Assembly (NCBI GenBank): GCA_023246225.1
Contig: JAHFIV010000001.1
Coordinates: 46 to 64,045, forward strand
Direction: 5' to 3'
DNA length: 64,000 bases
DNA from: a bacterium
GTDB lineage: Bacteria; Patescibacteriota; Patescibacteriia; SG8-24
Part shown: positions 9,538-49,548 of the stretch, in pieces
Numbering within the stretch: the stretch's first letter is position 1
Layout: every line of letters starts with the position of its first letter
Position numbers and translations under genes: made by a program
The notes under the pieces: generated by a model
The model's input: only the letters and a program-made list of their open reading frames with translations
Told to the model about the DNA's origin: nothing
The model's database searches: none

Positions 9538-9563
9538 AATTATTTTTAATTTCTACTATGCCG

Positions 9564-13514: not shown

Positions 13515-13522
13515 TCGTTCAT

Positions 13523-24216: not shown

Positions 24217-24221
24217 AGAAT

Positions 24222-27927: not shown

Positions 27928-28494
27928 ATGAAAAAAGTCTTTATCGTCCATGGCTTAGGGAGCAGCCCGAACGGCGGTTGGCGTCCTTGGCTTATGGGTG
28001 AACTCAAAAAACATCACGTCTACGCGTGCGCGCTTGCAATGCCCACTCCCGATGAACCGGTTTGTGCTGAGTGGGTCGAGGAGATCGCGAGACATGTAGA
28101 AAAAAATGCGAATGATGAAATTTTTCTTGTCGGGCACAGCCTCGGTGTTTCTGCGATCCTGCGCTATCTAGAAACTGCGCCAGAAAAAATTCGTGTGTCT
28201 GGTGTCGTACTTGTATCTGGACGCTGCACTTCTCATCCGAATAAAAAATTGGCCAATTTTTTTGAACCAGCTTTTCATTTTGCAACGATCGCTTCTCGAG
28301 CGCGTTCGTTTACTATCATTCACGGCGATGACGACCAGGTCGTTTCTTTCGATAACGCCGAAATACTCTCACGGGAGTTGCACGCAGAGCTTATCGTGAT
28401 ACCGAAAGGTGGACATCTGAACGGTGGAAGCGGTTGGCAAACGCTCCCCGCGTGTCTCGATACGCTCATGAAAATGATTGGCTCATCCTCTTAG
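27928..28494 (+). CDS. alpha/beta serine hydrolase, RBBP9/YdeN family
   Basis: Nucleophile elbow GHSLG plus a C-terminal HGDDDQVVS and GGHL arrangement typical of the family. 188 aa. Confidence 0.8.
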   Translation: MKKVFIVHGLGSSPNGGWRPWLMGELKKHHVYACALAMPTPDEPVCAEWVEEIARHVEKNANDEIFLVGHSLGVSAILRYLETAPEKIRVSGVVLVSGRCTSHPNKKLANFFEPAFHFATIASRARSFTIIHGDDDQVVSFDNAEILSRELHAELIVIPKGGHLNGGSGWQTLPACLDTLMKMIGSSS

Positions 28495-29226
28495 GAGCGT
28501 AATCCCCCACACACTTCCTGCTCCCGATTTTTTTAAAATTCTTGCGCATTCTTGTAATGTTGCTGACGATGTCGCCACGTCATCGATCAGAACGTAACGA
28601 CCGCCCTCGCGCACACGAGAAGTGACGTGAAAAATGCCGACCACGTTCTCGGTTCTTGCGCGACGATCTTGAATCGCCGCTTGCGACTGCCGACCATGAC
28701 TTCGACGTAAGAGATTCATCGCAACCGACGCATGCATCACTTTTCCAAACGACCGCGCAAGCGCTTCTGATTGATTGAACCCGCGCGTGGCACGACGAAA
28801 AAAAGCGAGCGGCACCGGAATAATTTTTGCGTCCTGCGCAACGATACCCATGAGTGCTCGGTGGCGCTCAATAAACAGAGAAAAAATTGTCTGCAATGTT
28901 CGTCCTGCAGCTTCGACCCTTTCGTACTTCCACAGCTGCAATAAACGCCGTAGCGTTCGATCGCTGTACGGTGCAACAGAGAGAAGACCGTCGAGTGGTG
29001 CCGCGCGACACTTGCGCGCATCACACGCAACACCGAGCGGGGTCGCTGTTCCGCAGAGCGCGCAAGCAAAAAGCCCCTTTCGGGGGCTTTTCAATTCTTC
29101 GAAACATTCGCTGCAGAGCACCTCGCCTTCTTTTTCACACGCGACGCAGTGATGAGGAAATAACGCGCGAAAAAAGAGATCGATCACGCCGGGTTTCACT
29201 TCCACGTTGCGGAATTCACCTTCCAT
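28483..29226 (-). CDS. comFC: ComF-family protein (competence protein ComFC-like, phosphoribosyltransferase domain)
   Basis: N-terminal 4-Cys zinc-finger (CVACEKEGEVLCSEC ... CALCG). C-terminal PRTase motif VLIDDVATSSATL. Confidence 0.8.
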   Translation of the reverse strand: MEGEFRNVEVKPGVIDLFFRALFPHHCVACEKEGEVLCSECFEELKSPRKGLFACALCGTATPLGVACDARKCRAAPLDGLLSVAPYSDRTLRRLLQLWKYERVEAAGRTLQTIFSLFIERHRALMGIVAQDAKIIPVPLAFFRRATRGFNQSEALARSFGKVMHASVAMNLLRRSHGRQSQAAIQDRRARTENVVGIFHVTSRVREGGRYVLIDDVATSSATLQECARILKKSGAGSVWGITLLRG

Positions 29227-29816
29227 ACTCCATCTTCTTTCACAAAAGCGATATCAACATCCTGATACTTCACCGTACCGTTCGGTGTGTTCCCCACAAA
29301 CTCCTGCCGTTGTGTCTTCACACTGATCTCCGCTCGACCATCCGCATCTGCAAACGCGGTTGTTGTCGTATTGATTGCGCGAGTGGTGATGCCGTAGTGC
29401 TCCTTCGCGGGCGGCTTACCTTGCTCTTTTGCGATGTAGGCGTCGGTGCGGCCGATCATGCCAGAGCTCATAAATACTTTCAAGGCCACCAAATTTGCGA
29501 AGTCGTTGTCAAGATTTGAGTAGCTACCATAACGTTCCGCAAACGCTGCGGCGAGTCGACCGAGGTTTGCTTCAGCGGCGGGTTTTGGAGCCTGAGTCGT
29601 CACGGGATGCGTCACTGGAGCCGGTGCAGTATTCACCGAGGTGGTCGTACCAGTGTTCAACAAAAAAGTATTAGGCGTGCCGCTCGTCGCGTTCACCGCT
29701 TGGTTCGTTGCGGGAGTCGACGTGGTGTGCCGACCCAAAAACAACAACAACAGTAACAAAAGTACGAGGATGATCGCGGCGATAATAATTTTTGTGCGGC
29801 GAGGCATGGGAGACAA
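29196..29816 (-). CDS. bitopic membrane-anchored protein (VirB8-like placement)
   Basis: N-terminal TM anchor (IIIAAIILVLLLLLLLFLG), Thr/Pro-rich linker, globular C-terminal domain. Immediately downstream of VirB4. Confidence 0.4.
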   Translation of the reverse strand: MSPMPRRTKIIIAAIILVLLLLLLLFLGRHTTSTPATNQAVNATSGTPNTFLLNTGTTTSVNTAPAPVTHPVTTQAPKPAAEANLGRLAAAFAERYGSYSNLDNDFANLVALKVFMSSGMIGRTDAYIAKEQGKPPAKEHYGITTRAINTTTTAFADADGRAEISVKTQRQEFVGNTPNGTVKYQDVDIAFVKEDGVWKVNSATWK

Positions 29817-31712
29817 TTATTTTTCCAATGACGCTTCGTACTCCTTCTTCGCAGCTTCGATTTCAAGAAGTTGTTGTGGATTTGTAGTGACTACTTGATC
29901 TTCTGCATATGATGCCACCACCTTGATCGCCGCGTGTTTGTTTCCCGCAAAGAAAATTCCTTCACCGACGCCACACTCAAGTAACAAATACTTTTCACCT
30001 TCTGTGAGCAAAAACGTTTTTGCGATATTATCGATCGCCGCCGGTGATTGCTTGAGCAGTAACTGCATGGCGGAGTTCGTCACAATCGCCTGACCGTACG
30101 TATTGCGAAGGAAGTCGTTCACGTCCTGCGTGATCGTCGTGACACCGAGATAATATTTTCGACAACGCTTCACGAGTGCAAAGATGAACTTCGCAGAGTC
30201 CTCGTTTTGCATCAGCCACCACGCTTCGTCAATAACTAAGATACGTTTCTTTCGTTCAGACCGAACGGTGTTCCAGATGTAGTTCACGATCGCATAAATA
30301 CCGAGAGGGCGTAGCTCATCTTCAAGGTCACGCACAGAAAAAGTAACGAGTGTATTCTTCATCGCGACAGTGGTTGGCGAATTGAACAACCCCGCAAACG
30401 TTCCTTCTGTGAACTTTTTAAGGCGAATAACGAGATCTTTTGTGCCTTCCATACCCTCGAGCACATCCACGAAATCTTGAATGATCGGTGGTTCAACTGT
30501 TGCGAGATCAGAGTCAGGAGTAATATCTTTTTTTGCGTACGTTTCAAGAAGCGCACGATCAAGAATGGAATCCTCTTGCGCTGTGACAGCACCGAGCATG
30601 ATACGCAGCAATCCTTTCACGGTGATCACCGCGCTACGAATAATGTCCTCTGTCGTGACCTGCTCTCCTATCGCTCGTGGCAAATCAAACGGATTAATCT
30701 TCGCTTCTGAAGCGAGCGATACATTGATGTACGTTCCACCAACCGCATCAGAAAGATGTTTGTATTCCATTTCTGGGTCGATCACGATCACTTCGGTGCC
30801 GAGCATGAGCGAGCGAAGAATTTCTAGCTTCACTGTGTAGGATTTTCCTGCGCCCGATGTTGCAAACACGATGTAATTCGCATTTTGCATCGAAAACCTA
30901 TCAAACAAAATCAAACTGTTATTGTGACGATTCACTCCGAACAGCACACCGTTATCTGAAGTGAGATCTGCAGAAATAAAAGGAAACGACGATGCGACCG
31001 GCGAGGAGTTCATGTTGAACGTGATCATTAGCTCGTCATTTCCTTGAGGAACTGTCGAGTTAAAACCTTGCTCAGACTGATAAAATACTCGCTTCGTGTA
31101 AATCAACTTCCCACCGAACAATGATTCGACTTCTTCGGACAGTCGGTCTAGTTCTTTTTTGTCTTTCGCGTACACGGTGACGTACAACGCGAACTGGAAA
31201 AAATGCTCAGTCCCCTGCGAAAGCGAGTCGCGCAATTCTTCGATGTCGCGAAGTGCGGTTTCTCGAATCGGATCGCGCGGCGAGCCCTTCTCGTTATCAG
31301 AAAGAATCTGCGCTTCAAGCGTACCGACTTTTTTCTTGAGTTGTTTCAAAATGACTTCCGGTTTCACTGGATAGAAAAACATCGCAATATCCAGCGGATA
31401 GTTCAAGTTGACGATCGGTGCGAACCAACCGAGTGAGATGTAACGCGGATACGTCACCACAAAAATCGTTCGCACGTAACTTTCGTTCAACACTAAATAG
31501 GTCGGCTCGATTTTAAAACCTGCAGGCGCGACGATATCTTTAATGGAGACAACGCCCTTGCGATAAATCCGTTCCTCTTCGAGCAGTTCTTTTTCTTTTG
31601 CAAGTGTTGCAGTTTCTACGACTCGTTTTTGTGCCGTTCCTGAAAGTTTCCGCGGTGTTTGCGGAACGTTCACTGGTTCGAGTGATCCAATTTTTCCTGG
31701 TTCAAATGCCAT
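29817..31712 (-). CDS. VirB4/TrbE/CagE-family type IV secretion ATPase (ATPase portion)
   Basis: Walker A GAGKSYTVK and Walker B ILVIDEAWW. Conserved C-terminal TQDVNDF region. 631 aa. Confidence 0.9.
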   Translation of the reverse strand: MAFEPGKIGSLEPVNVPQTPRKLSGTAQKRVVETATLAKEKELLEEERIYRKGVVSIKDIVAPAGFKIEPTYLVLNESYVRTIFVVTYPRYISLGWFAPIVNLNYPLDIAMFFYPVKPEVILKQLKKKVGTLEAQILSDNEKGSPRDPIRETALRDIEELRDSLSQGTEHFFQFALYVTVYAKDKKELDRLSEEVESLFGGKLIYTKRVFYQSEQGFNSTVPQGNDELMITFNMNSSPVASSFPFISADLTSDNGVLFGVNRHNNSLILFDRFSMQNANYIVFATSGAGKSYTVKLEILRSLMLGTEVIVIDPEMEYKHLSDAVGGTYINVSLASEAKINPFDLPRAIGEQVTTEDIIRSAVITVKGLLRIMLGAVTAQEDSILDRALLETYAKKDITPDSDLATVEPPIIQDFVDVLEGMEGTKDLVIRLKKFTEGTFAGLFNSPTTVAMKNTLVTFSVRDLEDELRPLGIYAIVNYIWNTVRSERKKRILVIDEAWWLMQNEDSAKFIFALVKRCRKYYLGVTTITQDVNDFLRNTYGQAIVTNSAMQLLLKQSPAAIDNIAKTFLLTEGEKYLLLECGVGEGIFFAGNKHAAIKVVASYAEDQVVTTNPQQLLEIEAAKKEYEASLEK

Positions 31713-31713
31713 A

Positions 31714-32418
31714 TTATACCGTGGTGATTTCTTCGGTCACCCGAATTTTGGACTGATCGACCATTTTTTCATTGTCGTACAAATCAGGGTTGTACACGCG
31801 ATAGTACAGCTCGATAAGACTTTGCGTATCGAGTTGCACCGCCTTGAGACCCATGCTCCCGAGCGACCCCTGGATGTGGTCGACGCGCGTCTGAAGATCG
31901 TTCTTACGCTGACGAAATCGTGACTCCGCGAGTCGTACAGACAAGGCTGGAGTAAACGCTTCTGACAAGCGAGAAAAAAATCCTTTTGCTTTGTCGGAGA
32001 GTGGGTTGTATGGCACCACCACAAAAAATTGTTTCTGCATGATCTGTCCGAGGGTCACCAGTTCTTGCACGAAACTTCGGTAGTCCGCGATCTGAAATCG
32101 TAACAATTCGTTCGTTTGATTTTTTTGAGATTCCTTTAAGCGCTCGAGATACGTATCGATATTCAATTTTCGTGATTGGATGACGATCTGCAGTGGAAAT
32201 TCGAGTGCATTTAAAAAACCGATGTACGCAGAAATAATCGCGTTCTGCTCATCCTCTGATTTGAGTGCGAAGTTGATGCTCGCAACGAGAAGCACTGCGC
32301 GCATCGTGCCATCTTTCATAATGACGACATCTTCTTTGATTTCGTTGATATCCAAATACCGCTGGGTCGCCGGACCCGGCTTTGCTCCTGCGAGTTTTTT
32401 GGATTGCATTTCTGGCAT
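31714..32418 (-). CDS. VirB4 N-terminal domain encoded as a separate ORF (split VirB4)
   Basis: VLLVASINFALKSEDEQNAIISAYIGFLNALEFPLQIVIQSRKLNID resembles the N-terminal domain of Gram-positive VirB4 (PrgJ/TcpF-like). Its stop TAA is followed after 1 nt by the ATG of the VirB4 ATPase ORF. Confidence 0.55.
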   Translation of the reverse strand: MPEMQSKKLAGAKPGPATQRYLDINEIKEDVVIMKDGTMRAVLLVASINFALKSEDEQNAIISAYIGFLNALEFPLQIVIQSRKLNIDTYLERLKESQKNQTNELLRFQIADYRSFVQELVTLGQIMQKQFFVVVPYNPLSDKAKGFFSRLSEAFTPALSVRLAESRFRQRKNDLQTRVDHIQGSLGSMGLKAVQLDTQSLIELYYRVYNPDLYDNEKMVDQSKIRVTEEITTV

Positions 32419-32496
32419 ACGTTTGAACTATGGATCCCGGATCGGCCGTCGCCGCGCGACGCCCGCCCGGGATGACGCGCGCAAAGGAAATGCGCG

Positions 32497-32928
32497 TCAA
32501 TCAGCGTCAGGGTTGTACACACCACCAGTGTTCACCACAAGAGAAAGTTCGGTGAGTTTCGTTGCGGCGAGCGGTTCTTTTCTAATACGCACCACTGGCG
32601 GAGCCGGCGGTGGCGCTTTGATGATCTCACGCAACTCACTGTCGGTGTACTCTTTGTCCCACAATCGAAGGCTCGGGCGGCGCACGGTCTGCACCAGATT
32701 CAAACAAAAAAAATGAAACGGCTGACCGTTCACGCGCAAAAAAGCAAAAATTCCACCAATCATAATGGTTGGAATACCTGTTGCGAGAAACGCAGTGAAA
32801 TCGAAAAGTTTATATTCAATGAACATGACAAACGACGTGGCGAGCATCAAAAGAAACTGTCGAACGGTGAGTGGTCCGAGGATTTTATCCTCCACATCGA
32901 TGAACTGCGGGACAGTGAACTTGTTCAT
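32497..32928 (-). CDS. PrgI/VirB3-like small membrane protein
   Basis: The N-terminus FIDVEDKILGPLTVRQFLLML plus 2 TM segments is typical of PrgI-family proteins that precede VirB4 in Gram-positive-type T4SS. Confidence 0.55.
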   Translation of the reverse strand: MNKFTVPQFIDVEDKILGPLTVRQFLLMLATSFVMFIEYKLFDFTAFLATGIPTIMIGGIFAFLRVNGQPFHFFCLNLVQTVRRPSLRLWDKEYTDSELREIIKAPPPAPPVVRIRKEPLAATKLTELSLVVNTGGVYNPDAD

Positions 32929-32964
32929 ACGCTACATGTAGCATACCACAATCTACACCTCTTT

Positions 32965-33888
32965 TCATCCGAAGCGCACCGTGCGATTAAGCTCCATTAT
33001 CGCTGCGAATTCGTCCTTATTCAGCGCCGGTTCACGCTTTTTTTCGAGCTCGGCGATAACATCGAGAATCGGCTTACCTTCGAGACCACCACGAAGCATG
33101 GAGAGGTAGAGTTTGTTCACCTCGCTGTCCTGCCACGCTTTTATCCCCTGCGTTTTTATTTCGAAACCAAGATCATCGAGCAAATCGATCTTATCTTTAA
33201 TCTTGAGCGTGGCTTCGCGAGGATCTTTAGAGAGTCTACGAAAATCTTTGAGCGTGAGTGCGCGGAGTTCTTCGACTGGACCGGTTAGTCGCGGAGTAAA
33301 TTTTACGTCGGAGATCGTTTGCGCTGGTGGTGTTACTGTTGGCGCGGCTGCCGGTGTCGCGCGGGGCACGGGCGCGCTTGCTACTGGTTTCGGCGCAACA
33401 GGTTGCGGTTCATTTTTTGCGATCGGAGCAACAGGTAAATTCGGTGGTGCTGGTGCTTTTTCTTGCGGGGCAGCGGGTGACGTTACTGCGATAACGCGCG
33501 GTTCTGCAGGCGGCGTTTCTGATAGCGATTTTTGTGGCGTGGTTTGTGCAGCGCCACTTACTTTCGTCACCAATTTTGCAAACGCGCTATCGTTCGCTGC
33601 TTTTTCTTTTTGTTGCTGCTCGTCGGCTTCGTTCATCATCTTCGCTGTACGCACTGCGACATACTCCGCTTTTTCATTTGCGACACGACGCACATCTTTT
33701 GCGTGATACGCCGCATTTTTTTCTTTAAAAACCACCATCGCTTTCTCGGCGTCTGCGTCACTCACCCCCATTCCCCCACTTGCGATCGGCATAGTAAGTT
33801 TCGACGTCGTTTCCAGGACGTCACGGAGATCGCGAAAATACATCGACACAAGCATACGAAAGCGACGCCGCTCATCATCATCTTTCAC
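32965..33888 (-). CDS. hypothetical protein with long Pro/Ala-rich linker (T4SS-like cluster)
   Basis: A 307-aa ORF. The annotated start is GTG, overlapping the upstream stop by 1 nt; an alternative ATG lies 11 codons downstream. Confidence 0.5.
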   Translation of the reverse strand: MKDDDERRRFRMLVSMYFRDLRDVLETTSKLTMPIASGGMGVSDADAEKAMVVFKEKNAAYHAKDVRRVANEKAEYVAVRTAKMMNEADEQQQKEKAANDSAFAKLVTKVSGAAQTTPQKSLSETPPAEPRVIAVTSPAAPQEKAPAPPNLPVAPIAKNEPQPVAPKPVASAPVPRATPAAAPTVTPPAQTISDVKFTPRLTGPVEELRALTLKDFRRLSKDPREATLKIKDKIDLLDDLGFEIKTQGIKAWQDSEVNKLYLSMLRGGLEGKPILDVIAELEKKREPALNKDEFAAIMELNRTVRFG

Positions 33889-35126
33889 TACGATTCCAGA
33901 TGCGGCGATCGCTTCGTCTGCGGCGGTATCGTATGGGGTTGCTGATGGGACGATTTTTTTTCTGGATTCCGGCTCGGGGGCAGGAATGACAGAAGATAGA
34001 GGGGTAGGGGTGATTGAAGAAGTGGATGGCGGAATGACAACGGTTTTGGTCCTGGTGCGGGGGCAGGAATAACAGATGGAGGTGTTACGGGTTTTGGTGG
34101 TGGTACGGCTTTTTTTTCTGGATTCCGGCTCGGAGGCCGGAATGACATGTTCCGGGTCAAGCCTGGAATGACAAGAGAAGTGGTAGCCGGAATGACAGAA
34201 GTGACAGACGGAACGACAGGAGCAGGAGAGGCTGGGATGACAGAAGAAAGAGCAGGCAGAGTGACAGGAGATGGGGGCGTTGCTGGTTGCGGTGGTTTTG
34301 GTGGTGGTACAACCACTGGTTTTTTCACTTCTTCTTTTACGATTCTGGATTCCGGCTCGGAGGCCGGAATGACAATAGACGAAGGGGTTGGCGAGGCTGC
34401 GAGGCTTACTTTTCGCCCAAATCGGCCGGCGAGTTCCTTGGTTTTCTGCAGGAACCTCTCTTTTGTTTGGCGCTCTCGCTCTTCTCGCTCCTTTGCATTT
34501 TTTATCGCTTCCTCTTTGAGCGCAGGTAACTTTGGAGCGGCTTCGTGCAGTAACGCGATAACCGCAGCGCTCTGTTCGGGAGAAAATTCAGACCCCCCGG
34601 TTTTCACCGGCTTCTCAAGCATCTCCTTCGTTGCATTTTCATCATGAATACCTTTCAACTGTGCGGTCACGATCGTCTCAAACCGACGACGCAGCACGTG
34701 ATCACTCGGCGCGTATCCGCTTTTCTCCACAATCCCCCGTGCCATCACCTCGATCGGATCGACCGCGGGAGGTAGCGGCGGAAGAAATTCATCAGCGTGC
34801 AGATCTTTGTAAATCTTTTGCTGCTCTTCAAGAAGCTCTGTAGCATCAGCGAGCACATCAGCGAACGCATCACCTTGCACATCGAGCGCTTTTTCAAAAG
34901 GTATCCCTGCGTTGTCCTCAAGCCAGCTCGCAAGATCATCATCAGAAATTTTTCCGAGCGCAATCATGCGCACACCGCTCAAAAATTCGTTTGTCTGTAC
35001 GGGAGTGAGCTCGTGTCGCACCGCGATCTCGTCAAATTTTTTCTGTCGCTCAGACGCAGCGAAAAAGGTCTCCAGCTCCGGGAGTACCCACTCGTCCTCC
35101 TTGAACGTGAAGACCGGTTCGGTCAT
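33888..35126 (-). CDS. hypothetical acidic protein whose C-terminal ~140 aa are encoded by palindromic repeat cluster R2
   Basis: Continuous ORF. Residues after about 245 read VIPASEPES / SFRPPSRNPEKK, the translation of GTCATTCCGGCCTCCGAGCCGGAATCC-type repeats. Confidence 0.5.
   Translation of the reverse strand: MTEPVFTFKEDEWVLPELETFFAASERQKKFDEIAVRHELTPVQTNEFLSGVRMIALGKISDDDLASWLEDNAGIPFEKALDVQGDAFADVLADATELLEEQQKIYKDLHADEFLPPLPPAVDPIEVMARGIVEKSGYAPSDHVLRRRFETIVTAQLKGIHDENATKEMLEKPVKTGGSEFSPEQSAAVIALLHEAAPKLPALKEEAIKNAKEREERERQTKERFLQKTKELAGRFGRKVSLAASPTPSSIVIPASEPESRIVKEEVKKPVVVPPPKPPQPATPPSPVTLPALSSVIPASPAPVVPSVTSVIPATTSLVIPGLTRNMSFRPPSRNPEKKAVPPPKPVTPPSVIPAPAPGPKPLSFRHPLLQSPLPLYLLSFLPPSRNPEKKSSHQQPHTIPPQTKRSPHLES
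33958..34376. repeat. MITE-like palindromic repeat cluster R2, located inside a reading frame
   Basis: At least four TTCTGGATTCCGGCTCGGAGGCCGGAATGACA-type units within the 33888..35126 ORF. Confidence 0.8.
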
Positions 35127-35141
35127 AAAATACTACGGACC

Positions 35142-37787: not shown

Positions 37788-37868
37788 TGCAATGGGGGGA
37801 CGACTATACGCTTATAGTAGCACAAATCTCGACGGGGATGAATATGCTGTCTTCTCGGCCCTCTCCTC

Positions 37869-38087
37869 TGTCATTCCGGCCTCCGAGCCGGAATCCAGAA
37901 AAATTAAAAAGACCAAACGGAAATCGTTTGGCTTTACGGTTCTGGATTCCGGGTCACGGCCCGGAATGACAATAAAGGAGGCCGGAATGAAAGAGGGGTG
38001 GCTGGGTTCCACTCAACAAAAAGACCAAACGATTTCCGTTTGGTCTTTTTTACGTTTCTGGATTCCGGGTCAAGCCCGGAATGACAA
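37869..38087. repeat. MITE-like palindromic repeat cluster R3 (two adjacent elements) between the giant gene and the VirB6-like gene
   Basis: Starts TGTCATTCCGGCC and ends CCCGGAATGACAA. Contains two AAAAAGACCAAACG-N5-CGTTTGG-T-run bidirectional terminator-like hairpins. Confidence 0.8.
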
Positions 38088-38099
38088 AGCGAGAAAAAC

Positions 38100-41000: not shown

Positions 41001-44000
41001 CATGTCATACATGCACAGATTCGCGATGCATTTTCCTTGTGCCTGCGATCCTGCCGGACAATCGTACGTCCCACTGCACCCAAGACTGAGTTTACAATCC
41101 GCATCACTGCGACACTGCCGATTGTTGGTACTGAGCATCGCACCGACGCGCTGCGTTGCCGAGATCGACGCGTTGCAAATACCATCCGAACCGCACTGCG
41201 CGCTCGTATCACACGGCTTGAGTTGTGCGCTGTCGAGCGACGACTCACAGAATCCCACGAATTTTTTTCCACAGCGGAACCCCCACGAGAGCGGATCGCT
41301 CCCTGGCGGGTTGCACGTGCCGTCCGACCAGCACAGTGTATCGTTGAGCGTCCCTGTTTTCTTGTCCGCACATCGTCCCATGCGGAAATCGACCGGAAGC
41401 GCATACTGCGCCGGATACTGGCCGGGAATAGTAAACCCTGAATACTCCACTCCCTTGTAAGTGATGTCGCGCTGCGCATACAGATCCGCGGTGACGCGTT
41501 TTACATTCTCTACTTTTTCAGGACGCTCCACCCAATTACTGCATTCCTGCGACTCACCGAACGTGCGCTGTTCATCGCATGCATCAAATCCGGAACACCT
41601 ATACTTGTATCGTCCGGTTGCCTCATCAGAAACCGCGTCCGTGGATCTACACGTGAGCCACTCTGCACATTCGCGATCCGCACCCACTTTAATAACGATG
41701 TTCGCGTCATTTTTTGTGACGTCGCGCCCCGCGGGACTCACACCCTTCTCTGACAGATCACATTTTTCTTCTTTTCTCTTGTCACAATCGGTGTCCGCCC
41801 CGCATGCAGTCGTGTGCCCACCGTCCACGGAGAAGCACCGACCTTCACAGAACGGACTTCGCGGATCGAGATTGCAGTTGAGCGGGTTCACCTTGCCACC
41901 GTTCACTGTTTTTTCGCTAAGGAAATACGTCGCAGCAGACGCGAACAACCTTGAGGGGTCGCTAGTTTTAGTAAACAACACACACCCTTCTTTGAGCGAA
42001 GCGGAGCCCCCGCACGACGTGAGGTCCAACTTGTTGTTCATGATGTAGTAGTACGGCTTTCCTTTTGGATGCACCTTCGATGTCGCGGCGGGATCAATAA
42101 ATTCTTCGCAACGATCGTACTGCGGATCGCACTGCCCCACCCAACCTTGATACCCACACGTGGTATTGCCGCGCGCAACTCTGCATACTTGCGTCGTGAT
42201 CGGCGGATTCGTGCATCCGCACGTGGACGTCGACGCGTCCCATCCGATCGTGGTCGGTCCGCACGTCAAACCGTCCGGCAGCTGGCAGAGCGCGTCGGCA
42301 TTTTTATACAAATTGTAGAATTCACCGTTCTGCAACAACTCTGGATAGCACGGAATATCTTTTCCTGCAGCGCTCGCCCGGAACCAACCGTAGCTCGCAG
42401 TGCCGCTAATGTTTACTCCTTCTTTATATTGGCACGTGCGATCGAACGGCTCTTTGAAATAATACTTTCCGTCGATCGCAGTGAACTCTTCGCAAGAAAT
42501 CGCCGGTTGCGTACACAAAGTTTGCCCGTACTGCGCGGGATCATCTTTGAGCGCTTTGACGTTCCAATTTCCTGGCACGCCGTTTTCAAACGAGAGCGTG
42601 CAGGTGCTCAGTCCTTTTGCGACCGTACAGTTTGCGTTAAATATCGGTCCGCATGTGCATCCCGACGCATCGTCGCACTTGCCCGCAACGATCCCCGCTC
42701 CGACGTTCGGGAGCGTGCACTCGCGTTCGTAAGTGATCTGCGGATTCGCGACGCTCTTGCAACCGATCGCTGTCGCCGCGCAAAGATTCTCACTGCGCGC
42801 AACGAGGAACCGACGATCGTCCGCAGAAACGTTTACGCGATCAGGATGCGAAGATTGCGGAGTGTTGTCGTCCCATCCATCGAGTTTGAACTGGCATGCG
42901 TTCTCTCCGATCGCGACGCGGCAGATATCCGCGATATCCGGAACGTTATCGGTGTACCAAGGATGGCGCACGTTGTAGTCGCACTTACAGTTCGACGCTT
43001 CATCTGCGACAACCGCGCAATCTTTCGCGCCTTTCGCGACAATACAAGAATTGATGCCATCGTTACATGCGCACGACGCTCCCAAACATGTGGCACCTCC
43101 CGCGAGCGTGCATTTTCCACATGTACGCGGCTCCGGCGTTGCTCGTTTATCAACGAGCTGACACACCGCGTTATACGATTCCTCGTACGGTGTCTGCACG
43201 TTGTTTTGTGTGAACGAGTACGCCTGACAACCGACCGCTTTGTCGCGACACAACTGTGCGAACGATCGCAGATATGCTTTTTTATTTGCACTGTTCGTGT
43301 ACTCCTTACACCCCAACATCTCTTGTGGCGACGGCACGCCAGCGAGCGTTTGGTCGCACGCTGCGGGCGTGTTCCACGAATCGCGAACGACGTACAAATT
43401 TTCTGGAACTTCTTTTACGATAACGTTATCGATGTACGCTTCGCCAACACCGGATTTGGCGAACACGAGGCTCGTCGGCGCAGTGCCCCACAGAGGATCG
43501 ACCGCGCTCACCGGACCGAGTGAATACTGTTTCCAGTCCGCTCCGAGCGTAAGCGTCGGCGCAGACGTTGTGGTGTCGGCATCACTAAAATGCAGACTGA
43601 GCGGCTTATCTGGCGCTGTCGTCCCTTTCTTTGCAACAACACAATCGGATTTCATTTTTTCGACAAGACACACGAGCCCTGTAGGCGAGACGCATCCGCA
43701 ACCCGCGTCCTGATCGCACACCGTTTTGTTTGTACACGTGACATCTTCTGCGCCATCTTCAAAGCCGATGTCGAGCGTGCCGCTTCCCCGCGCCCAGAAC
43801 GTGAGTGTATAGCTGCGACCCGCAGCGACCGTACCGCCAACTTCTTTTGTCGCGGTCACGGATCCTGGAGCGAACTTCAACGAGTGTCCGCCGACAATCA
43901 CGGATTCTGATGACTGCTTCACATCCTTGCTCATCCACGCATCGACACCAGCCTCAAACGTGTCGCGCACAATACTCCGCACGTTGCTCGACGCGTTTCC

Positions 44001-47000
44001 TTTATATGGTCGGCAACCGTTGTACGCCTTACCGCAGTTCTGACTCGCTGTGACGTCTGCGTTGTAAATACACTGGCCCTTATCAGCGATCCACTGACCG
44101 TTTGATTTTTTACAATCATTTTCAGTTGCGGTGGTGATGCGATACTGGTGACATTCCGCGGTGAGGACGATCGTCTTTGATAATTTGCGGAAGTGGCGGT
44201 TGCCGTCGGCGTCATAAAATTCTCGGCAATCCAGATCACCACTATCGATATCTGCGCGACTGCACAAACCGTCGGTGGAACCGGCAGGAAGATCAGTGCT
44301 CACACTCGCGCAGTTGAGAGCGTTATCATCAAGCCGCGTACACGGTGCAACACCGGCGTTCTTGCACGTAGCCGGATCTGCGCACTCATCTGCAGCCTTT
44401 CCTTCTCCGATCTCTGTCATACTACACGCGCCGCACACGCCTGCAGCGCAGCACGTCTCTTCGTGCGCGACCGTGGTGTCACCACCCGCCGCGTCAGTCA
44501 CCTTCTTAAAGTTCCATACTTTCAACTGATATCCTGCAGTGTCTGAACCTTCCCAGCTATAGAACACTGTTTTCGGATCGGTCGACGGCTTTTGACACAA
44601 ACGAAGTTTCGAAAAGTACGCGACTTTTTCGTTCTCAACGTTGGTGAATTCAGAACAACCCGACTCCGCTTGCGTACACTGCTTCGCGGTCGTCGGAATA
44701 AAATACACAGGGAATTTTTCTGTATCAAATTCCGTTGCTTCTTGCTTGAAAATGTCATATCCCGCGCACTGCGCCGGACACGCGTCTTGCGGACCGGTCA
44801 CTGCAGGAAGTGAAGGATCGCCGTTCGTTGGTGTGAACCGATCACACCCGACTTCTTGCTCGCGACACACGCCTGCGAACGATGCACACTCTGGGCGGTC
44901 GGTCTCGTCACCTGTGCAACCAAGAAACGCGGGAGGAATTTTCGCGTCCACCATAGTGTTTGCCGAACCATACCCCTCGTGGAACGGCGTCAAACTCCCC
45001 TGCTCGAACTGCACTTCATCAACGTAGTCACCACCGCCGATCTCAAGCAAACCGTGCACCACTTTCTTTGGCAGCTTCGTGTCATCAACAACGAGCGTGC
45101 ATGACGCGCGGACTTCATCTGCGTTGCTCGTAAACGCGAAACGTAATACACCCGGCGCGTCAACTTTGCAGAAGTCGCTCGTCGGTGTTACCGGATTGCC
45201 GTTCTTATCTTGATACGCAGTGTTCGAAATAATCGCACCTGCCGGAAGCACGATCACGTTTCCGTTCAGATCGGTGAACGTCATTTGCATCGTCCCACTC
45301 GCTGAAGAAGCGCCGCTAAGGAACGTCGCTGAGAGGGTGTATGTGGTGTTTCCTTTTACCGGGACGCTGTCCTGGATGACGCGATCGGTGTACGCACATT
45401 CGGTCTGTCCTTTTATAACCTTACAAGTGTAATCGCCATCTTTGCAGGTGCACCCGGCATCGTTTGTACATACCGCAATCGTACAAGATTTTGGCGCGGA
45501 CCCCGTGAGACCCTGTATCTTCATCGCACTCGAGCCGCTCTTTATATTTGCCGCGGTCGTGGTTAAGACACCGCTGCTTGCAGATGCAGGAACCGCACCG
45601 AATGGCGCCCAATATTTCGCATGGTCAGGCGTGCCGTCACCATCGCCGTCCTCCAACTCTTCAAATCCCCCGTTTCGCACGAGGTTCAAAGATTGTCCGG
45701 TCGCGAGCGGAACGAGCGCAGAGCATCCGTTGTCTGTCGCCGAACACGTTTGCGCATTCTTATTAAAGTATCGCTGCGGCTGCACACGCCAATCATCGGC
45801 GACGTTCTGATCATCTCCCATCGTTGATGCGCAAGAATCCTGCCCCTTTGCAACGCGACACGTGCTGAGGTAGCAGCTACACCCGCCAGCGCTCGCGCAT
45901 TTCGCTTCGAGCGTGCACACGCTGCCATCATCGACTTTGCAAAGCGTTTTTCCGTTCGCGACGACGCAGCCGTCATTCCCTGACGCGTTGCCGGCGAGAC
46001 AACCTTTTTCAAGCGGACAAGTGTCGACGCACACGCTCCCGGGACAATCTGCATCCTTCGTACACTGCGTGCCGGCGTTCGCGCCTGCTTTGCAGAAATT
46101 TTTCTTCTGCGCAGAGATGGCGTTGGTTTGCAGCGAATACGCAAGACAACCGACGTTGTCAGCGTTACACACATCGACATCGATCGTGTTGACCAAGAAA
46201 TTTTCTGTGCCGCCCGTGCGAGTTTTGAGCGTTCGACAACTACTATAGTAGGCAGGACACTGCTCACCCTGGAATCGCCACACATTCCGCTCTTTCTGAC
46301 AGTACCCCCATCCACCGACGCACTTCCCGAAATCGTCCTGACGTAAACACGTCGGCGAATCAACACACACCTCTGCACGCGAGGACGTTTCGCTTGTCAC
46401 AAGCGTCGGTCCAAACGCTGTCGCGCGGCATTGCGTTGGTGGAACTTTGAGAACCCAGTCAGGATCGATCAGATGACACCACGGATGAGCCGAGTCGATC
46501 GTGCCGTTCGCGTTGCAATCATTAAAATGCGCGACAACCTCGCCGAGTGTCACTGGCGTCGCACCGACTTTGCTCGCGGCGATCTCCCAGCCGATCGAAA
46601 TGATACGCGCGGCACGAAGCTGTTTGAGGTTGCTCTCACAGTACGCGTACGTGTAGCAAAACGGATCGGTGTCGCGCTGTTTCTCTGTGGCAGGGAACAT
46701 CCGCCAATCGCTATGAAGCATCCCTCGCTTCAGCGCTTCTCTCACAGAGAGCGGTGTCGCATCGCCGATGCGAACAATGTCAGCAAACTGCTGGTCCATG
46801 ACGCAGTTGTTCGGGGCAGGATTCGACGGCGGGCAGGTCGTAAAATTGGTAAGCGGATCGTACTCCCCCGCTTCGTGCGTGGTAAGTGGGACGATTCTTG
46901 ACTGCTGAATCACCGCGGAGGCTGTTGCGCCCGGTTGTTGCACGATCCCTTCTGGACTAAGAATGATGTCGGGTTGTACAGAAAGCAGTTCTCCTGTGGA

Positions 47001-47942
47001 GAGCAGACCGCTCACCAGTTTATTCCACAATCGTGCGGTAAGTGTCGAGACAAACGTATTTGTCGCAGTAAGAACGACGGACTTCACCGCTCCTTTTGCG
47101 ATACTACCGGTCGTCGCCATTCTCGTACCGTCGAGTTGAGAGGCTTCACCATTTTTTGAACGACGGAATTCTTCTTGCGTCACTGCGCCTGGAGATTTTA
47201 TGCGACCAGAAACAGGATCTTTAATCGGAGAGAATCCTCCGCTCGACGCATTGGCGAGTCTCTCAACAACGCTGTCTCGCTGCGCGTTGCTGATAATATC
47301 TTGCTTGATGCCGAGCGCGGCGATGGAGACGCTGAGCGGACTCTGTCCCAATGAAAATTGGGGTTTTAATTTATTCAAAATCTCTCCTGTTGAAAATGAG
47401 GTAGCTATCGAATCCCAATTTTTAATCAGCTGATCGAAATTACACTTTGGCGGACTAGGAACGATCTCTTTCATGAAGCTGAGCTGCAACGCCAGCCCCG
47501 AAAGTCCTGGATCGCAAAGAAAATTGTTGCCGAACAACCCTTGCGAAAGGGAACCGACACTTTCACCGATCGCCCCTTGCCATGCTTGTCGGAAACCGTC
47601 CTTAAATCCCTTACTGTCCCAACACGCCACCTGACCAGGACAATCAGAGGTCAACGCTTTTGCTGCTTGATACGCGAGTTGCTGCGTAAAATAATTTGTA
47701 CCGTTAACGACCGCGATCACCGCTGACTCAACCAAAAGATGTTCGATCTTGTCGCTAGCAGCATTACCTGCAACTAAAGAAGTTAGCGGCGCATCCGCAA
47801 CAGGAAGCACGGCGAGCGCCGGCTTCGGCACAGTGAGCGTCGTTATCGTCACAACGCCCGCAACAAACATCGCGAGAAGCGCGCTGAGTTTCAGCGTTCT
47901 CTTTGTTGTGTGCGATTTTTCCGATCGCGGTTGTGGTTTCAT
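38100..47942 (-). CDS. giant (3280 aa) secreted/anchored Cys-rich surface protein with CBM-like modules
   Basis: Uninterrupted 9.8-kb ORF with N-terminal signal/anchor. Repeated Cys module C-x-C-x(4-7)-C-x-VAKG-x(2-3)-C at least 6 times. NGGFE and RDTFEAG segments resemble CBM4/9-type starts. Its ATG overlaps the upstream stop. Confidence 0.85.
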   Translation of the reverse strand: MKPQPRSEKSHTTKRTLKLSALLAMFVAGVVTITTLTVPKPALAVLPVADAPLTSLVAGNAASDKIEHLLVESAVIAVVNGTNYFTQQLAYQAAKALTSDCPGQVACWDSKGFKDGFRQAWQGAIGESVGSLSQGLFGNNFLCDPGLSGLALQLSFMKEIVPSPPKCNFDQLIKNWDSIATSFSTGEILNKLKPQFSLGQSPLSVSIAALGIKQDIISNAQRDSVVERLANASSGGFSPIKDPVSGRIKSPGAVTQEEFRRSKNGEASQLDGTRMATTGSIAKGAVKSVVLTATNTFVSTLTARLWNKLVSGLLSTGELLSVQPDIILSPEGIVQQPGATASAVIQQSRIVPLTTHEAGEYDPLTNFTTCPPSNPAPNNCVMDQQFADIVRIGDATPLSVREALKRGMLHSDWRMFPATEKQRDTDPFCYTYAYCESNLKQLRAARIISIGWEIAASKVGATPVTLGEVVAHFNDCNANGTIDSAHPWCHLIDPDWVLKVPPTQCRATAFGPTLVTSETSSRAEVCVDSPTCLRQDDFGKCVGGWGYCQKERNVWRFQGEQCPAYYSSCRTLKTRTGGTENFLVNTIDVDVCNADNVGCLAYSLQTNAISAQKKNFCKAGANAGTQCTKDADCPGSVCVDTCPLEKGCLAGNASGNDGCVVANGKTLCKVDDGSVCTLEAKCASAGGCSCYLSTCRVAKGQDSCASTMGDDQNVADDWRVQPQRYFNKNAQTCSATDNGCSALVPLATGQSLNLVRNGGFEELEDGDGDGTPDHAKYWAPFGAVPASASSGVLTTTAANIKSGSSAMKIQGLTGSAPKSCTIAVCTNDAGCTCKDGDYTCKVIKGQTECAYTDRVIQDSVPVKGNTTYTLSATFLSGASSASGTMQMTFTDLNGNVIVLPAGAIISNTAYQDKNGNPVTPTSDFCKVDAPGVLRFAFTSNADEVRASCTLVVDDTKLPKKVVHGLLEIGGGDYVDEVQFEQGSLTPFHEGYGSANTMVDAKIPPAFLGCTGDETDRPECASFAGVCREQEVGCDRFTPTNGDPSLPAVTGPQDACPAQCAGYDIFKQEATEFDTEKFPVYFIPTTAKQCTQAESGCSEFTNVENEKVAYFSKLRLCQKPSTDPKTVFYSWEGSDTAGYQLKVWNFKKVTDAAGGDTTVAHEETCCAAGVCGACSMTEIGEGKAADECADPATCKNAGVAPCTRLDDNALNCASVSTDLPAGSTDGLCSRADIDSGDLDCREFYDADGNRHFRKLSKTIVLTAECHQYRITTATENDCKKSNGQWIADKGQCIYNADVTASQNCGKAYNGCRPYKGNASSNVRSIVRDTFEAGVDAWMSKDVKQSSESVIVGGHSLKFAPGSVTATKEVGGTVAAGRSYTLTFWARGSGTLDIGFEDGAEDVTCTNKTVCDQDAGCGCVSPTGLVCLVEKMKSDCVVAKKGTTAPDKPLSLHFSDADTTTSAPTLTLGADWKQYSLGPVSAVDPLWGTAPTSLVFAKSGVGEAYIDNVIVKEVPENLYVVRDSWNTPAACDQTLAGVPSPQEMLGCKEYTNSANKKAYLRSFAQLCRDKAVGCQAYSFTQNNVQTPYEESYNAVCQLVDKRATPEPRTCGKCTLAGGATCLGASCACNDGINSCIVAKGAKDCAVVADEASNCKCDYNVRHPWYTDNVPDIADICRVAIGENACQFKLDGWDDNTPQSSHPDRVNVSADDRRFLVARSENLCAATAIGCKSVANPQITYERECTLPNVGAGIVAGKCDDASGCTCGPIFNANCTVAKGLSTCTLSFENGVPGNWNVKALKDDPAQYGQTLCTQPAISCEEFTAIDGKYYFKEPFDRTCQYKEGVNISGTASYGWFRASAAGKDIPCYPELLQNGEFYNLYKNADALCQLPDGLTCGPTTIGWDASTSTCGCTNPPITTQVCRVARGNTTCGYQGWVGQCDPQYDRCEEFIDPAATSKVHPKGKPYYYIMNNKLDLTSCGGSASLKEGCVLFTKTSDPSRLFASAATYFLSEKTVNGGKVNPLNCNLDPRSPFCEGRCFSVDGGHTTACGADTDCDKRKEEKCDLSEKGVSPAGRDVTKNDANIVIKVGADRECAEWLTCRSTDAVSDEATGRYKYRCSGFDACDEQRTFGESQECSNWVERPEKVENVKRVTADLYAQRDITYKGVEYSGFTIPGQYPAQYALPVDFRMGRCADKKTGTLNDTLCWSDGTCNPPGSDPLSWGFRCGKKFVGFCESSLDSAQLKPCDTSAQCGSDGICNASISATQRVGAMLSTNNRQCRSDADCKLSLGCSGTYDCPAGSQAQGKCIANLCMYDMKGGPLRSDFINAPSCRGYPEDDAPFPPSVVVKYDNDTGLPKEIKSGFGNANICTKENACDCSYRKLGYGVNGTTVRYVSLHDPRLAPGIHGEDKGVCVGGPNDGKTCVPSARPVPTDAATDPCVSSEGGVCSRWTKDVTAKGWYGFCLDPDFGRFVNANPDRHTCNLWLPQDQLSGGSDLGNQNEEAGYVNSGNLLYCQVAQGTRVGTPGILSYSMKIEDQIGSIPADVPRLPGWGWWSNECYAAVGCKIGIGDLLGLDDGKVNAKWIPYPVHTTPPPKPNLYKFPQRDLFEDEIAGIHVFGNAGYFKSTVASGRKFDFYLTEKNQWTICIRYPNKSSGEPGPDNGQYFDESIKGNHEIIASTSCPFAGLGVNDSHTTDIDEPLADGGCMNLAVLGIRAHFVDRKLAGFATVSCNNEVHCAQLSEAFVGGVCTPPTPLAPNPFFNPTACIGAALLKAIEAIGSKDYCPNTLATVYVELRDWCQEIAFVNDVSRGLDSDFKNYAWTDRLANAYLDAPPYQKDHKSDRFSNAGTDIQQHNAVGVTQLPMIPYGAIAQPIEDFSPDPKNGRILFSLNPAAPDDEKINKVWNRILPVYDSEGGSVFTHVDVRPKKDKPNERQFIFNAGSTASGTPYACIGDCGSDKGKGAPDAGWRNAGFGARALGALHLSQYFAAAFNVYEWRQGSPLWNNPSDPSVTVPRGADYEPRWSYDAYRLANGDLAKVDVTARALGGDGGWDFRERYATEHNAPKVVAVDYSFCFGSRNCQEGPAGLTVNKIMAAVPVASHSGKLKATLTYYAYADRDHMPIRHKIVDWGDNLEILELTGWYKNRRGSINLGGGSSKKICDDPALGWGGGKQCQSEFFEETHTYTCSKEKLAKLIADKQECDKSKGIVTDCVNNAHTACVFKPRVQIMDNWQTCNGTCPGNGGLGNLCMNNTGAADECVQIPPDKTNPWTSFAGTIEVYPPLP

Positions 47943-48625
47943 TATTTTGTCGGCGACGGCGCGGGTGGCGCAGTCGACATTGATGCAGCGATCTCTACAA
48001 GAGTGTCTTCAACTAACTTTCGCAGCGTCGCATCATCAGCCTTTGCAAGCGCATCTTCAGGAATTCCCAACTCGGTAATAAATGATCGCAATTCTACCGA
48101 ACTCATCGCGTCGAGTTTTGTGGTGATTTTTTCTTTTGTGAGCAGTGTCGGGTCACCGAAGGTTGTGATGATCGCCTGCATCGATCGTTCTTGTGCAGTT
48201 GCTGTTGGCGCGGGTGCAGGCGGTTGTTCTGTCGCCGGTGCAGCGTTCGTACTTGCTGTGCCACTCACCACAACTTGTCGACATATTTTTCCTTTCGGAC
48301 AATTCGGATCGGCGCCGGCGGCAACCTCTGTGCCATCGTTCGTACCATCAGAGTCTGAGTCCGCAAGAAAAGGGCTGGTGTGAAAAACGTACAGCTCGTC
48401 GTAATCAGAGAGCCCGTCTTTATCAGTATCTTCTGTCTTCAGTCGATCCATCTGCTCTTGCTCCAACTCATCTGAGCTTTTGTACGTAATCGGCTTGCGA
48501 ACAAAAGGAACCCAGATCGATCTCTTGATTTGCGCATACGCTAAAACCGCTGTCGTGATGCCGATGAGCAAGAAAACGACGAGCGCGATTTTTTCATGCG
48601 ATTTCGATGGAGATGTTTGAGTCAC
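47942..48625 (-). CDS. membrane-anchored protein with thrombospondin-type-3-like Ca-binding repeats
   Basis: TM anchor KIALVVFLLIGITTAVLAYA. DTDKDGLSDYDE and DSDSDGTNDGTE match the DxDxDGxxDxxE motif. Start taken as GTG at 48625; the ORF is open to 48745 but that would overlap rsmA. Confidence 0.5.
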   Translation of the reverse strand: MTQTSPSKSHEKIALVVFLLIGITTAVLAYAQIKRSIWVPFVRKPITYKSSDELEQEQMDRLKTEDTDKDGLSDYDELYVFHTSPFLADSDSDGTNDGTEVAAGADPNCPKGKICRQVVVSGTASTNAAPATEQPPAPAPTATAQERSMQAIITTFGDPTLLTKEKITTKLDAMSSVELRSFITELGIPEDALAKADDATLRKLVEDTLVEIAASMSTAPPAPSPTK

Positions 48626-48699
48626 ATGATAAAGAGACCTCAGAGGTTCCCTTATGAAAAGTATACCATGCGAATAAGGGGTGGTCGACCTTACTGTGT

Positions 48700-49548
48700 C
48701 TACCGTTTTTTCGCTGGTCGCAACGCGTTTGAAAGCGCAGCCCACTCGACGACAGAAAGTTCCTCCGGACGAGCGGACGGTAAAATTTTTGCCTCAACGA
48801 AGGCGGTTTCTAAGGCTGACGGGATCGTTGTGGTGGATTTCAGGCTGTTGCGAAGTTGTTTGCGACGCTCTCTGAACGCTTGCCGAACGATCTCGAAGTA
48901 ACGAATCGCGGTTGTCTCTCCAAAAAATTTCTGCAACTCTTCGTCGCTGCGTCGACTCATGTGGATAACCGCCGAAGCAACTTTTGGTGGCGGAAAAAAC
49001 GCTCCAGCCGCAACATTTTTCACTCGCTCCACACGCGCAAGCGTTTGCATAAACACCGCGAGCGAACTCATGTCGCCAGGTTTTGCGAGAATGCGATCAG
49101 CGACTTCTTTTTGCACCATCACCGTGATCGACGTCGGTGCCGGAGATTCGAGAAGAAGTTTTTGCAGTATCGCCGAAGTGATCGCATAAGGAAGATTCGC
49201 GATCACGACGTAGTGGTCGCGCGCAAATATGGAATTGGCTACAGAAAATGCGAGCGCATCACCTTCAACAAGATGAAAATTTTTGTACGAACCAAAACGC
49301 TCGCGAAGCACGGTGCAAAGTTTTTTATCGATTTCAATCGCGAGAACTTCTGCGCCGCAGCGAAGAAGTTCTGCGGTAAGAATTCCCGGACCAGGACCGA
49401 TCTCAAAAACCCGTGTCCCCTTTTGCACGCCTGCGGCGTCTACCATCCCCGCAACAACTTTTTCATCCAACAAAAAATGCTGGCTTCGATCTTTGAGAGG
49501 ACGGATGCCGAGCGGTTCGAGAAGTTGACGAAGCTCTGTCGGGGTCAT
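48700..49548 (-). CDS. rsmA: 16S rRNA (adenine1518/1519-N6)-dimethyltransferase
   Basis: SAM-binding motif region and IANLPY motif. Start ATG at 49548 (MTPTELRQLLE) overlaps the upstream stop (ATGA). Confidence 0.9.
   Translation of the reverse strand: MTPTELRQLLEPLGIRPLKDRSQHFLLDEKVVAGMVDAAGVQKGTRVFEIGPGPGILTAELLRCGAEVLAIEIDKKLCTVLRERFGSYKNFHLVEGDALAFSVANSIFARDHYVVIANLPYAITSAILQKLLLESPAPTSITVMVQKEVADRILAKPGDMSSLAVFMQTLARVERVKNVAAGAFFPPPKVASAVIHMSRRSDEELQKFFGETTAIRYFEIVRQAFRERRKQLRNSLKSTTTIPSALETAFVEAKILPSARPEELSVVEWAALSNALRPAKKR

Follow-up and report, generated by a model that had tools for sequence, protein, structure and literature searches.

A type IV secretion gene cluster with comF in a patescibacterial genome: composition, conservation and possible cargo

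What is a type IV secretion system (T4SS) for when comF stands among its genes and neither a relaxase nor a coupling protein is found with it? This question is raised by a 64,000-nucleotide (nt) stretch of contig JAHFIV010000001.1 (assembly GCA_023246225.1, positions 46 to 64,045) from a bacterium of the patescibacterial lineage SG8-24; the whole stretch is called the window here. Ten co-directional minus-strand open reading frames (ORFs) lie at 28483-48745 of the window and encode, 5′–3′ along the coding strand, products of 267, 3280, 881, 412, 307, 143, 234, 631, 206 and 247 amino acids (aa). All ten were found where an earlier note, made from the sequence alone, had placed them and read them as a candidate ComB-like apparatus for DNA uptake or cell contact. 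We show that they encode a minimal single-membrane translocon composed of an extended VirB6, VirB3/PrgI, a VirB4 made of two polypeptides (TrsD and the ATPase) and VirB8. The cluster is almost certainly a T4SS of the Patescibacteria type, in an arrangement typical of the class ABY1 (Uhr-, Magasanik-, Falkow- and Buchananbacteria), and is very probably non-conjugative. Overall, a Patescibacteria-type T4SS in its ABY1 layout, with import of nucleic acid as the favoured function, is the best explanation, and we hold it with slightly more confidence than doubt.

The translocon genes and comF

The translocon and ComF are encoded by the following ORFs.

35142..37787, minus strand: extended VirB6-like polytopic membrane protein, 881 aa, assigned by fold
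32497..32928, minus strand: PrgI/VirB3-like small membrane protein, 143 aa (PF12666)
31714..32418, minus strand: TrsD-like protein, the VirB4 N-terminal domain as a gene of its own, 234 aa (NF041427)
29817..31712, minus strand: VirB4 ATPase, the C-terminal three quarters of a canonical VirB4 (NF045971, P-loop_TraG)
29196..29816, minus strand: VirB8-like bitopic protein, 206 aa, assigned by fold
28483..29226, minus strand: ComF (ComFC-type), 247 aa, with a DZR_2 zinc ribbon and a type I phosphoribosyltransferase (PRTase) domain

The 631-aa VirB4 protein matched the NCBIfam model NF045971 (CD1110-family VirB4) with 336.8 bits against a cut-off of 325 (E 2.6e-100) over model positions 152-730 of 752, and gave a Pfam match to P-loop_TraG (3.3e-24). 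It carries a Walker A (TSGAGKSY) and a Walker B motif (ILVIDEAW). It matches the Mbov_0397 family as well, and these best families (CD1110, Mbov_0397) are those of VirB4 proteins from integrative conjugative elements (ICEs) and conjugative transposons. A sub-threshold match to T4SS-DNA_transf (E 0.015) lies inside VirB4 itself, and a partial match to CedB (E 1.3e-13) covers the P-loop only, with 50 bits against a cut-off of 700. The ORF upstream encodes a protein matching TrsD (NF041427, 2.3e-6) that covers, in the VirB4 models, positions 2-145 (CD1110) and 104-233 (Mbov_0397), and whose homologues carry PF26593 (TraC-like). Jointly, the TrsD and VirB4 ORFs make up a complete VirB4.

The earlier note had described a VirB4 split into two ORFs, implying damage; what we see instead is a conserved TrsD and VirB4 pair. 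Related loci were collected from one genome per species (80 loci, VirB4 identity 70-93%), and in 80 of the 80 TrsD is a separate ORF, never fused, at a median of 4 nt before virB4. The best 120 of 8000 VirB4 homologues scored have 73-100% identity and lengths of 571-666 aa, in most cases about 630 aa, and the named ones among them are mostly Patescibacteria, Uhrbacteria or Magasanikbacteria. Independent assemblies have the same layout of separate TrsD and VirB4 genes. Together, the homologue lengths, the 80 loci and the independent assemblies rule out a frameshift or an assembly artefact as the cause of the split.

The PrgI-family protein scored 28.2 bits against the PF12666 cut-off of 27 (E 2.8e-6), and its gene is found directly upstream of TrsD in 77 of 82 loci. 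For the VirB6-like and VirB8-like proteins there was no match in Pfam, NCBIfam or PHROGs. The former has a transmembrane (TM) core at residues ~1-375, followed by a hydrophilic C-terminal tail of ~500 aa; the latter consists of a TM helix, a disordered Thr/Pro linker and an NTF2-like domain, and its fold matches PrgL, TraM and TcpC. A search of the VirB8-like family profile against PDB sequences returned low-complexity or TM noise only. PF19590 was considered for the VirB6-like family on account of a precomputed flag on some homologues, which hmmscan of eight did not reproduce. The signatures named earlier for VirB4 (Walker A/B) and PrgI are thus borne out, each by a model score above its cut-off, and the VirB6 and VirB8 assignments, proposed from topology, prove correct by fold.

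In the comF product, Pfam recognised both DZR_2 and Pribosyltran, in agreement with the earlier reading as a ComF PRTase. Full-length matches were obtained to TIGR00201 (E 4.8e-24, 85 bits, cut-off 233.55) and to GntX (E 3.4e-23, 82 bits, cut-off 304). Residues C27, C30, C38 and C41 and the phosphoribosyl pyrophosphate loop D215-D216-V217-x-T219 are invariant in 50 homologues, and the ComF profile matches Helicobacter pylori ComF (7p0h) and PRTases. The start of comF overlaps the VirB8-like gene by 31 nt. Of 49 loci in relatives, 39 have a gap of at most 60 nt between these two genes, and in 29 the two overlap; comF stands no more than 2.5 kb downstream of VirB4 in 63 of the 69 loci that are informative, that is, have enough sequence. 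Since the genes past comF differ between loci (a convergent hydrolase gene in the window; RecG, TfoX_N or HTTM genes in relatives), comF is the conserved end of the module. We conclude that comF truly belongs to the T4SS gene string and is conserved in it. In the window its 3′ end overlaps the convergent plus-strand Ser_hydrolase gene by 12 nt (28483-28494), so that a terminator would not fit between the two genes.

The order VirB6-like, 720-aa family (described below), PrgI, TrsD, VirB4, VirB8-like, comF is kept throughout the loci L001-L082. Gene order in the module is thus conserved in 80 related species and the flanks differ; the Ser_hydrolase neighbour of the window is absent in all 82 loci, so the flanks vary. 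Identity to the window is 70-93% for VirB4, 43-88% for TrsD, 42-76% for PrgI, 30-52% for the VirB6-like core, 25-45% for the VirB8-like protein and 26-47% for ComF. The named related loci come from Uhr-, Magasanik-, Falkow- and Buchananbacteria and from SG8_24-type Parcubacteria, groups that we take to be placed in class ABY1 by GTDB. Across several candidate orders VirB4 is thus 70-93% identical, compared with only 25-47% for its VirB8-like and ComF partners. This difference in identity suggests a very strong constraint on the ATPase. Many contigs with VirB4 at 72-90% identity (L003, L005, L006, L009, L011 and others) are labelled "uncultured Gammaproteobacteria bacterium", "Candidatus Binatia" or "Eisenbacteria"; on contigs with a Patescibacteria-type cluster such labels are probably placeholders or mis-assigned taxonomy of metagenome-assembled genomes (MAGs).

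Pfam scans of ~40 ORFs across the 64-kb window found no relaxase, no VirD4/TcpA and no VirB11, and in the same 64 kb no VirB1-type hydrolase and no VirB7, VirB9 or VirB10 were found. Neither a tblastn match to the T4SS_pilin of locus L001 nor a six-frame motif pointed to a VirB2-like pilin, which is a weak test, as the PF18895 scan covered only part of the small ORFs. No recognisable effector gene was seen in the cluster. The statement in the earlier note that VirD4, relaxase, VirB11 and pilin are missing from the cluster thus extends to the ~40 ORFs scanned across the window, and of the VirD4 and relaxase that it took as marks of a conjugative element if present nearby, neither was found in the 64 kb.

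Relation to published systems

Such clusters, borne on the chromosomes of most of these ultrasmall bacteria, have been surveyed by Quinonero-Coronel et al. (2025, Microb Genom 11:001409, PMC12102498), who analysed 2,474 patescibacterial virB4 genes and found a monophyletic VirB4 clade, sister to MPF_FATA. There, TrsD is the most abundant companion, joined by PrgI/VirB3 and VirB6, and VirB8 (PrgL-like) is found almost only in class ABY1. Relaxases are rare, type IV coupling proteins (T4CPs) are rarely nearby, the loci are chromosomal, KsgA/RsmA is frequent nearby, and in ABY1 comF, recG and radA are linked to the T4SS. The window shares with the ABY1 systems VirB4 with a separate TrsD, PrgI/VirB3, VirB6 and VirB8, and likewise the lack of a relaxase or a nearby T4CP, the chromosomal location, comF and KsgA/RsmA. 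In other classes a VirB2-like pilin and a VirB1-like hydrolase are frequent near virB4, unlike the window, in which neither was found. The accessible text of that paper reports that no adhesins were detected and does not mention as locus parts the giant Cys-rich, TSP3 and 720-aa proteins that the window holds. The system and its comF linkage were already published in 2025, and the locus is a further member of the group and a rediscovery. A T4SS–comF cluster as such is not new, the relaxase-less T4SS and the ABY1 linkage to comF/recG/radA both having appeared in the 2025 paper.

Southlakia epibionticum is the only Patescibacterium studied genetically. Its homologous T4SS is essential for epibiotic growth, whereas none of ComEC, ComF and DprA is a fitness gene (Wang et al. 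2023, Cell 186:4803, PMC10633639), a result repeated in a 2025 review (PMC12857230). The T4SS of Southlakia ML1 (SEML1_0006-0019, PMC10633639) and that of the window are homologous and of the monoderm type, and in neither locus can a relaxase or coupling protein be recognised; ML1 has TrsD, PrgI, VirB4 and VirB6 and depends on them for epibiotic growth (PMC10633639). Only the saccharibacterial locus has peptidoglycan hydrolases and six VirB2-like pilins, which form an essential array; a structural VirB8 was not detected there (PMC12857230, PMC12102498). The Southlakia comF lies outside the T4SS locus (PMC10633639), whereas in the window comF is in the operon, a VirB8-like protein is present and no pilin array was seen.

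With MPF_FATA systems (pCF10 Prg/Pcf, pGO1 Trs, Clostridioides difficile CTn2/CD1110) the window shares the order VirB6(PrgH)-VirB3(PrgI)-VirB4(PrgJ)-...-VirB8(PrgL). The TrsD and TrsE split of pGO1 equals the TrsD and VirB4 split of the window; to this are added the VirB4 score above the CD1110-family cut-off and the VirB8-like fold resembling PrgL, TraM and TcpC. Unlike these systems, the window was found to have no T4CP (PcfC/TrsK), relaxase, VirB1-type hydrolase (PrgK/TrsG) or PrgB-type adhesin, and its locus is chromosomal and vertically conserved, whereas the MPF_FATA conjugation systems reside on mobile elements.

Candidate surface proteins, the 720-aa family and the surroundings

Upstream of the VirB6-like gene lie two genes for candidate surface proteins and a spacer.

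47942..48745, minus strand: N-terminally anchored TSP3-repeat (Ca-binding type) protein, 267 aa (PF18884)
38100..47942, minus strand: giant Cys-rich protein, 3280 aa, with one N-terminal signal/anchor segment
37788..38099: 312-nt spacer with an inverted REP-like pair, two terminator-like hairpins and a promoter-like site

The TSP3 repeats of the one protein and the Cys richness of the other, both noted earlier, were confirmed. The giant protein has 172 Cys residues (5.2%) and a single N-terminal TM segment; no internal repeats were detected in it and no PDB sequence matched, which rules out the repetitive adhesin architecture that was considered. The matches that it gave, to CBM_4_9 and a gene transfer agent (GTA) spike-fibre, were weak, sub-threshold or borderline. 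A 3130-aa protein, 48% identical, occupies the same position in L084, the closest relative, and of 45 related loci, ~15 have a large Cys-rich ORF upstream of the VirB6-like gene. We regard the giant protein as a candidate surface or host-contact protein. The TSP3 protein passed PF18884 (TSP3_bac) with 26 bits against a cut-off of 25, has a TM segment at 49-74, and starts at either 48745 or 48625; a homologue with 56% identity stands directly upstream of the giant gene in L084.

The spacer holds a terminator-like hairpin at 37932-37912(-) and a promoter-like site at 37832-37803(-). It weakly suggests a boundary between a surface-protein unit (TSP3 and giant protein) and a T4SS–comF unit; such a split into two operons is no more than suggestive because the promoter- and terminator-like sites of the scan were not enriched over shuffles. 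Intergenic gaps measured in the cluster are 78, 36, 15 and 312 nt. Two gaps had been noted earlier, of which the 312-nt one was recovered and the 63-nt one was not reproduced.

Between the VirB6-like and PrgI genes the window reads as two ORFs, described earlier as two Pro-rich proteins.

32965..35126, minus strand: 720-aa soluble protein family, here two ORFs, a single ORF in sibling assemblies
33888-35126, minus strand: 412-aa ORF, a piece of the 720-aa gene
32965-33888, minus strand: 307-aa ORF, a piece of the 720-aa gene

They are one 720-aa gene, broken in this contig only. Two independent assemblies with an identical VirB6-like protein have a single 720-aa ORF, which rules out the 412-aa and 307-aa ORFs as separate genes. 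At the DNA level one of these assemblies (L088) was compared with the window; across 2163 nt there are 2 differences, one missing A in an A-run near 34048 and one single-nucleotide polymorphism. The gene reads as two ORFs in this contig because of this 1-nt deletion. The A-run at ~34048 is A4 in the window and A5 in the ENA assembly ERZ27280176 (site 33997 is listed with it), and either strains differ at this site or an error was made in sequencing or assembly. In L084 a single 628-aa ORF aligns to both pieces. The intact protein has an N-terminal domain, a Pro-rich linker and a conserved C-terminal domain of ~115 aa. Its family is always found between VirB6 and VirB3 in related loci and counts 2138 representative proteins at E<=1e-3; there was no match in Pfam, NCBIfam or PHROGs, and a PDB profile search gave noise only.

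A REP-like palindrome, CTGGATTCCGG-N8-CCGGAATGAC, occurs in 11 copies in the window, with 0 expected by chance. Copies lie at the following positions.

27015-27118: REP-like copies
33962-34373: REP-like copies
37870-37970: REP-like copies
53859-53958: REP-like copies
63784-63886: REP-like copies

Most are arranged as inverted pairs in intergenic spacers, ~70 nt from one another. The Pro-rich linker of the 720-aa gene holds three direct copies, which are in-frame in its intact version and translate as VIPA(S/P)EPESR-like peptides. The repeat cluster R2 (33962-34373), which the earlier note had put in a gap, thus falls within the 412-aa ORF.

As the earlier note had it, the cluster belongs to the chromosomal backbone and lies between rsmA and a hydrolase gene (Ser_hydrolase by Pfam); housekeeping genes flank it and the GC content is uniform. 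The GC content had been given as about 55%; we measured 47-55% with a mean of ~51%, equal to the flanks (50-52%). One flank carries rsmA, an MFS transporter, Sua5, an epimerase, a release factor, GroEL, YidC and NusA; the other carries Ser_hydrolase and a copper ATPase. A metal-handling module at 23185-26489 adjoins the downstream flank of the cluster.

24222-26489: copper-type P1B ATPase with HMA domain
23185-24216: DsbD_2 membrane protein with HMA domain

Relatives carry other genes close to the cluster: in L001 (17365-18465) a protein in which T4SS_pilin is fused to VanY, along with a DsbA/thioredoxin gene; in L002 (15304-15651) a TfoX_N competence-regulator-like gene; RecG in both L002 and L001; and in L084 (19157-22200) two HTTM/vitamin-K-carboxylase-like genes. 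For the pilin-VanY, RecG and TfoX genes no homologue was found in the window.

What the channel may carry

The mechanism that we favour would run as follows. The TrsD/VirB4 ATPase would energise a VirB3/6/8 channel, which would work at a contact site with the host cell set up by the surface proteins. In ABY1 the cargo would be nucleic acid moving inward, to be taken over in the cytoplasm by ComFC and then recombined or salvaged for nucleotides. To our knowledge, the sole known activity of ComFC is the handling of incoming single-stranded DNA. Import of nucleic acid is favoured because of this role, and because the coupling of comF is translational and conserved. Judged from gene content, import with hand-over to ComFC is the single most likely mechanism for ABY1, although we propose it tentatively and would not put its chances as high as even.

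Several observations weigh against this proposal. In Southlakia the T4SS is essential and ComEC, ComF and DprA are dispensable, therefore the ancestral role of the T4SS would not be Com-dependent uptake; at least in Saccharibacteria, the T4SS has a role independent of Com. Outside ABY1 comF is unlinked to the T4SS (PMC12102498). The window ComF scores under the curated cut-offs of both TIGR00201 and GntX, and in the cluster we identified no part of the channel itself that binds or processes DNA.

A different account would have comF in the string for co-regulation only. The T4SS would then act outward on the host, by delivery of effectors or enzymes, pilus-like attachment or puncturing, and comF would serve a separate uptake of released nucleic acid through type IV pili, ComEC, ComFC and DprA, turned on together with the T4SS. 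We consider this the main rival, somewhat less probable than import with hand-over to ComFC. Vibrio cholerae offers an analogy, in which TfoX co-induces a type VI secretion system and competence. TfoX_N and RecG genes near the cluster in relatives fit this picture, as do an essential T4SS independent of ComEC, ComF and DprA in Saccharibacteria (PMC10633639) and the preference of reviewers for protein export or an alternative capacity (PMC12857230, PMC10633639). ComEA/ComEC are present in most MAGs of the candidate phyla radiation (PMC9166423), and tubular, possibly T4SS-derived structures are reported at the parasite–host interface (bioRxiv 10.64898/2026.06.21.733656). However, no recognisable effector, hydrolase or pilin gene was seen in the cluster, and membership of a regulon would not require so tight a link as the translational overlap that comF and the VirB8-like gene show in most species.

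Returning to import, it is also conceivable, but unlikely, that ComFC, translationally coupled to VirB8, replaces the coupling protein as cytoplasmic receptor of the substrate, so that host nucleic acid would enter independently of ComEC through the VirB3/4/6/8 channel at the contact site formed by the giant protein.

Equally doubtful is a strict ComB-like or Ced-like machine for DNA import, with natural transformation as its sole function. H. pylori ComB and the window are alike in being a T4SS with no relaxase or T4CP found, in the association with ComFC and in their VirB3/4/6/8 homologues, and DNA-recombination genes lie near the conserved comF in relatives; ComB with ComFC, cited in PMC12102498, is a precedent. 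Yet ComB is a diderm MPF_T system that has ComB2 and ComB7/9/10 and takes double-stranded DNA across an outer membrane, whereas the organism of the window is monoderm, without an outer membrane. None of these ComB parts was found: Pfam and NCBIfam scans of the cluster gave no VirB9, VirB10 or VirB2 domain. The ComB analogy drawn in the earlier note is a speculation on function; the VirB7/9/10 core of ComB was not found in the window. As far as we know, H. pylori comFC lies outside the comB operons. The crenarchaeal Ced system (CedA/A1/A2 and CedB), which imports DNA, resembles the window in a VirB4/HerA-type ATPase with a polytopic membrane protein and no relaxase or T4CP, but has no VirB3/VirB6/VirB8 set, and the likeness comes down to the partial CedB match noted above, in the P-loop and far below the cut-off. 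In addition, the saccharibacterial T4SS is essential though transformation is dispensable (PMC10633639, PMC12857230), and a VirB4 identity of 70-93% across ABY1 orders would exceed the constraint expected of a dispensable competence accessory.

The window also holds a lower-GC island (2376-17748; 37-47% against ~51%) that abuts tRNA-Ser(tga) at 17661-17748.

2376-3425: IS256/Mutator transposase
3467-4330: ParB_N protein
9564-11720: 718-aa trypsin-like protein
13523-15820: prim-pol/PriCT protein
16480-17595: tyrosine integrase

Several further ORFs in it have no Pfam match, and no T4SS or mobilisation (MOB) gene was found there. The island is separate from the cluster because it is more than 10 kb away, lower in GC and adjacent to tRNA-Ser; it probably represents a mobile element that has integrated there and has nothing to do with the T4SS. 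Although VirB4 matches ICE and conjugative-transposon families best and the window has an integrase, a prim-pol and a transposase (2.4-17.6 kb), a decaying or cryptic ICE that has lost its relaxase and coupling protein or keeps them elsewhere is very improbable and is ruled out on context and conservation: besides the separateness of the island, the cluster sits between housekeeping genes and is intact and syntenic in 80 species, its single frameshift is absent from sibling assemblies, and relaxases are rare in Patescibacteria (PMC12102498).

Because the system and its comF linkage are already published, the locus brings no new principle. It contributes a confirmation of VirB6 and VirB8 at the level of fold and numbers on the coupling of comF. 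Two conserved partners that the accessible text of PMC12102498 does not describe, the 720-aa family (~2,100 representatives) and the giant Cys-rich protein (about one third of related loci), are targets for interaction studies. The T4SS of Patescibacteria is currently the sole T4SS shown to be essential for its own bacterium, and the ABY1 version with comFC in the operon is the clearest genomic hint of nucleic acid as its cargo. If ComFC did act as a receptor, this route would feed a bacterium that is unable to make nucleotides.

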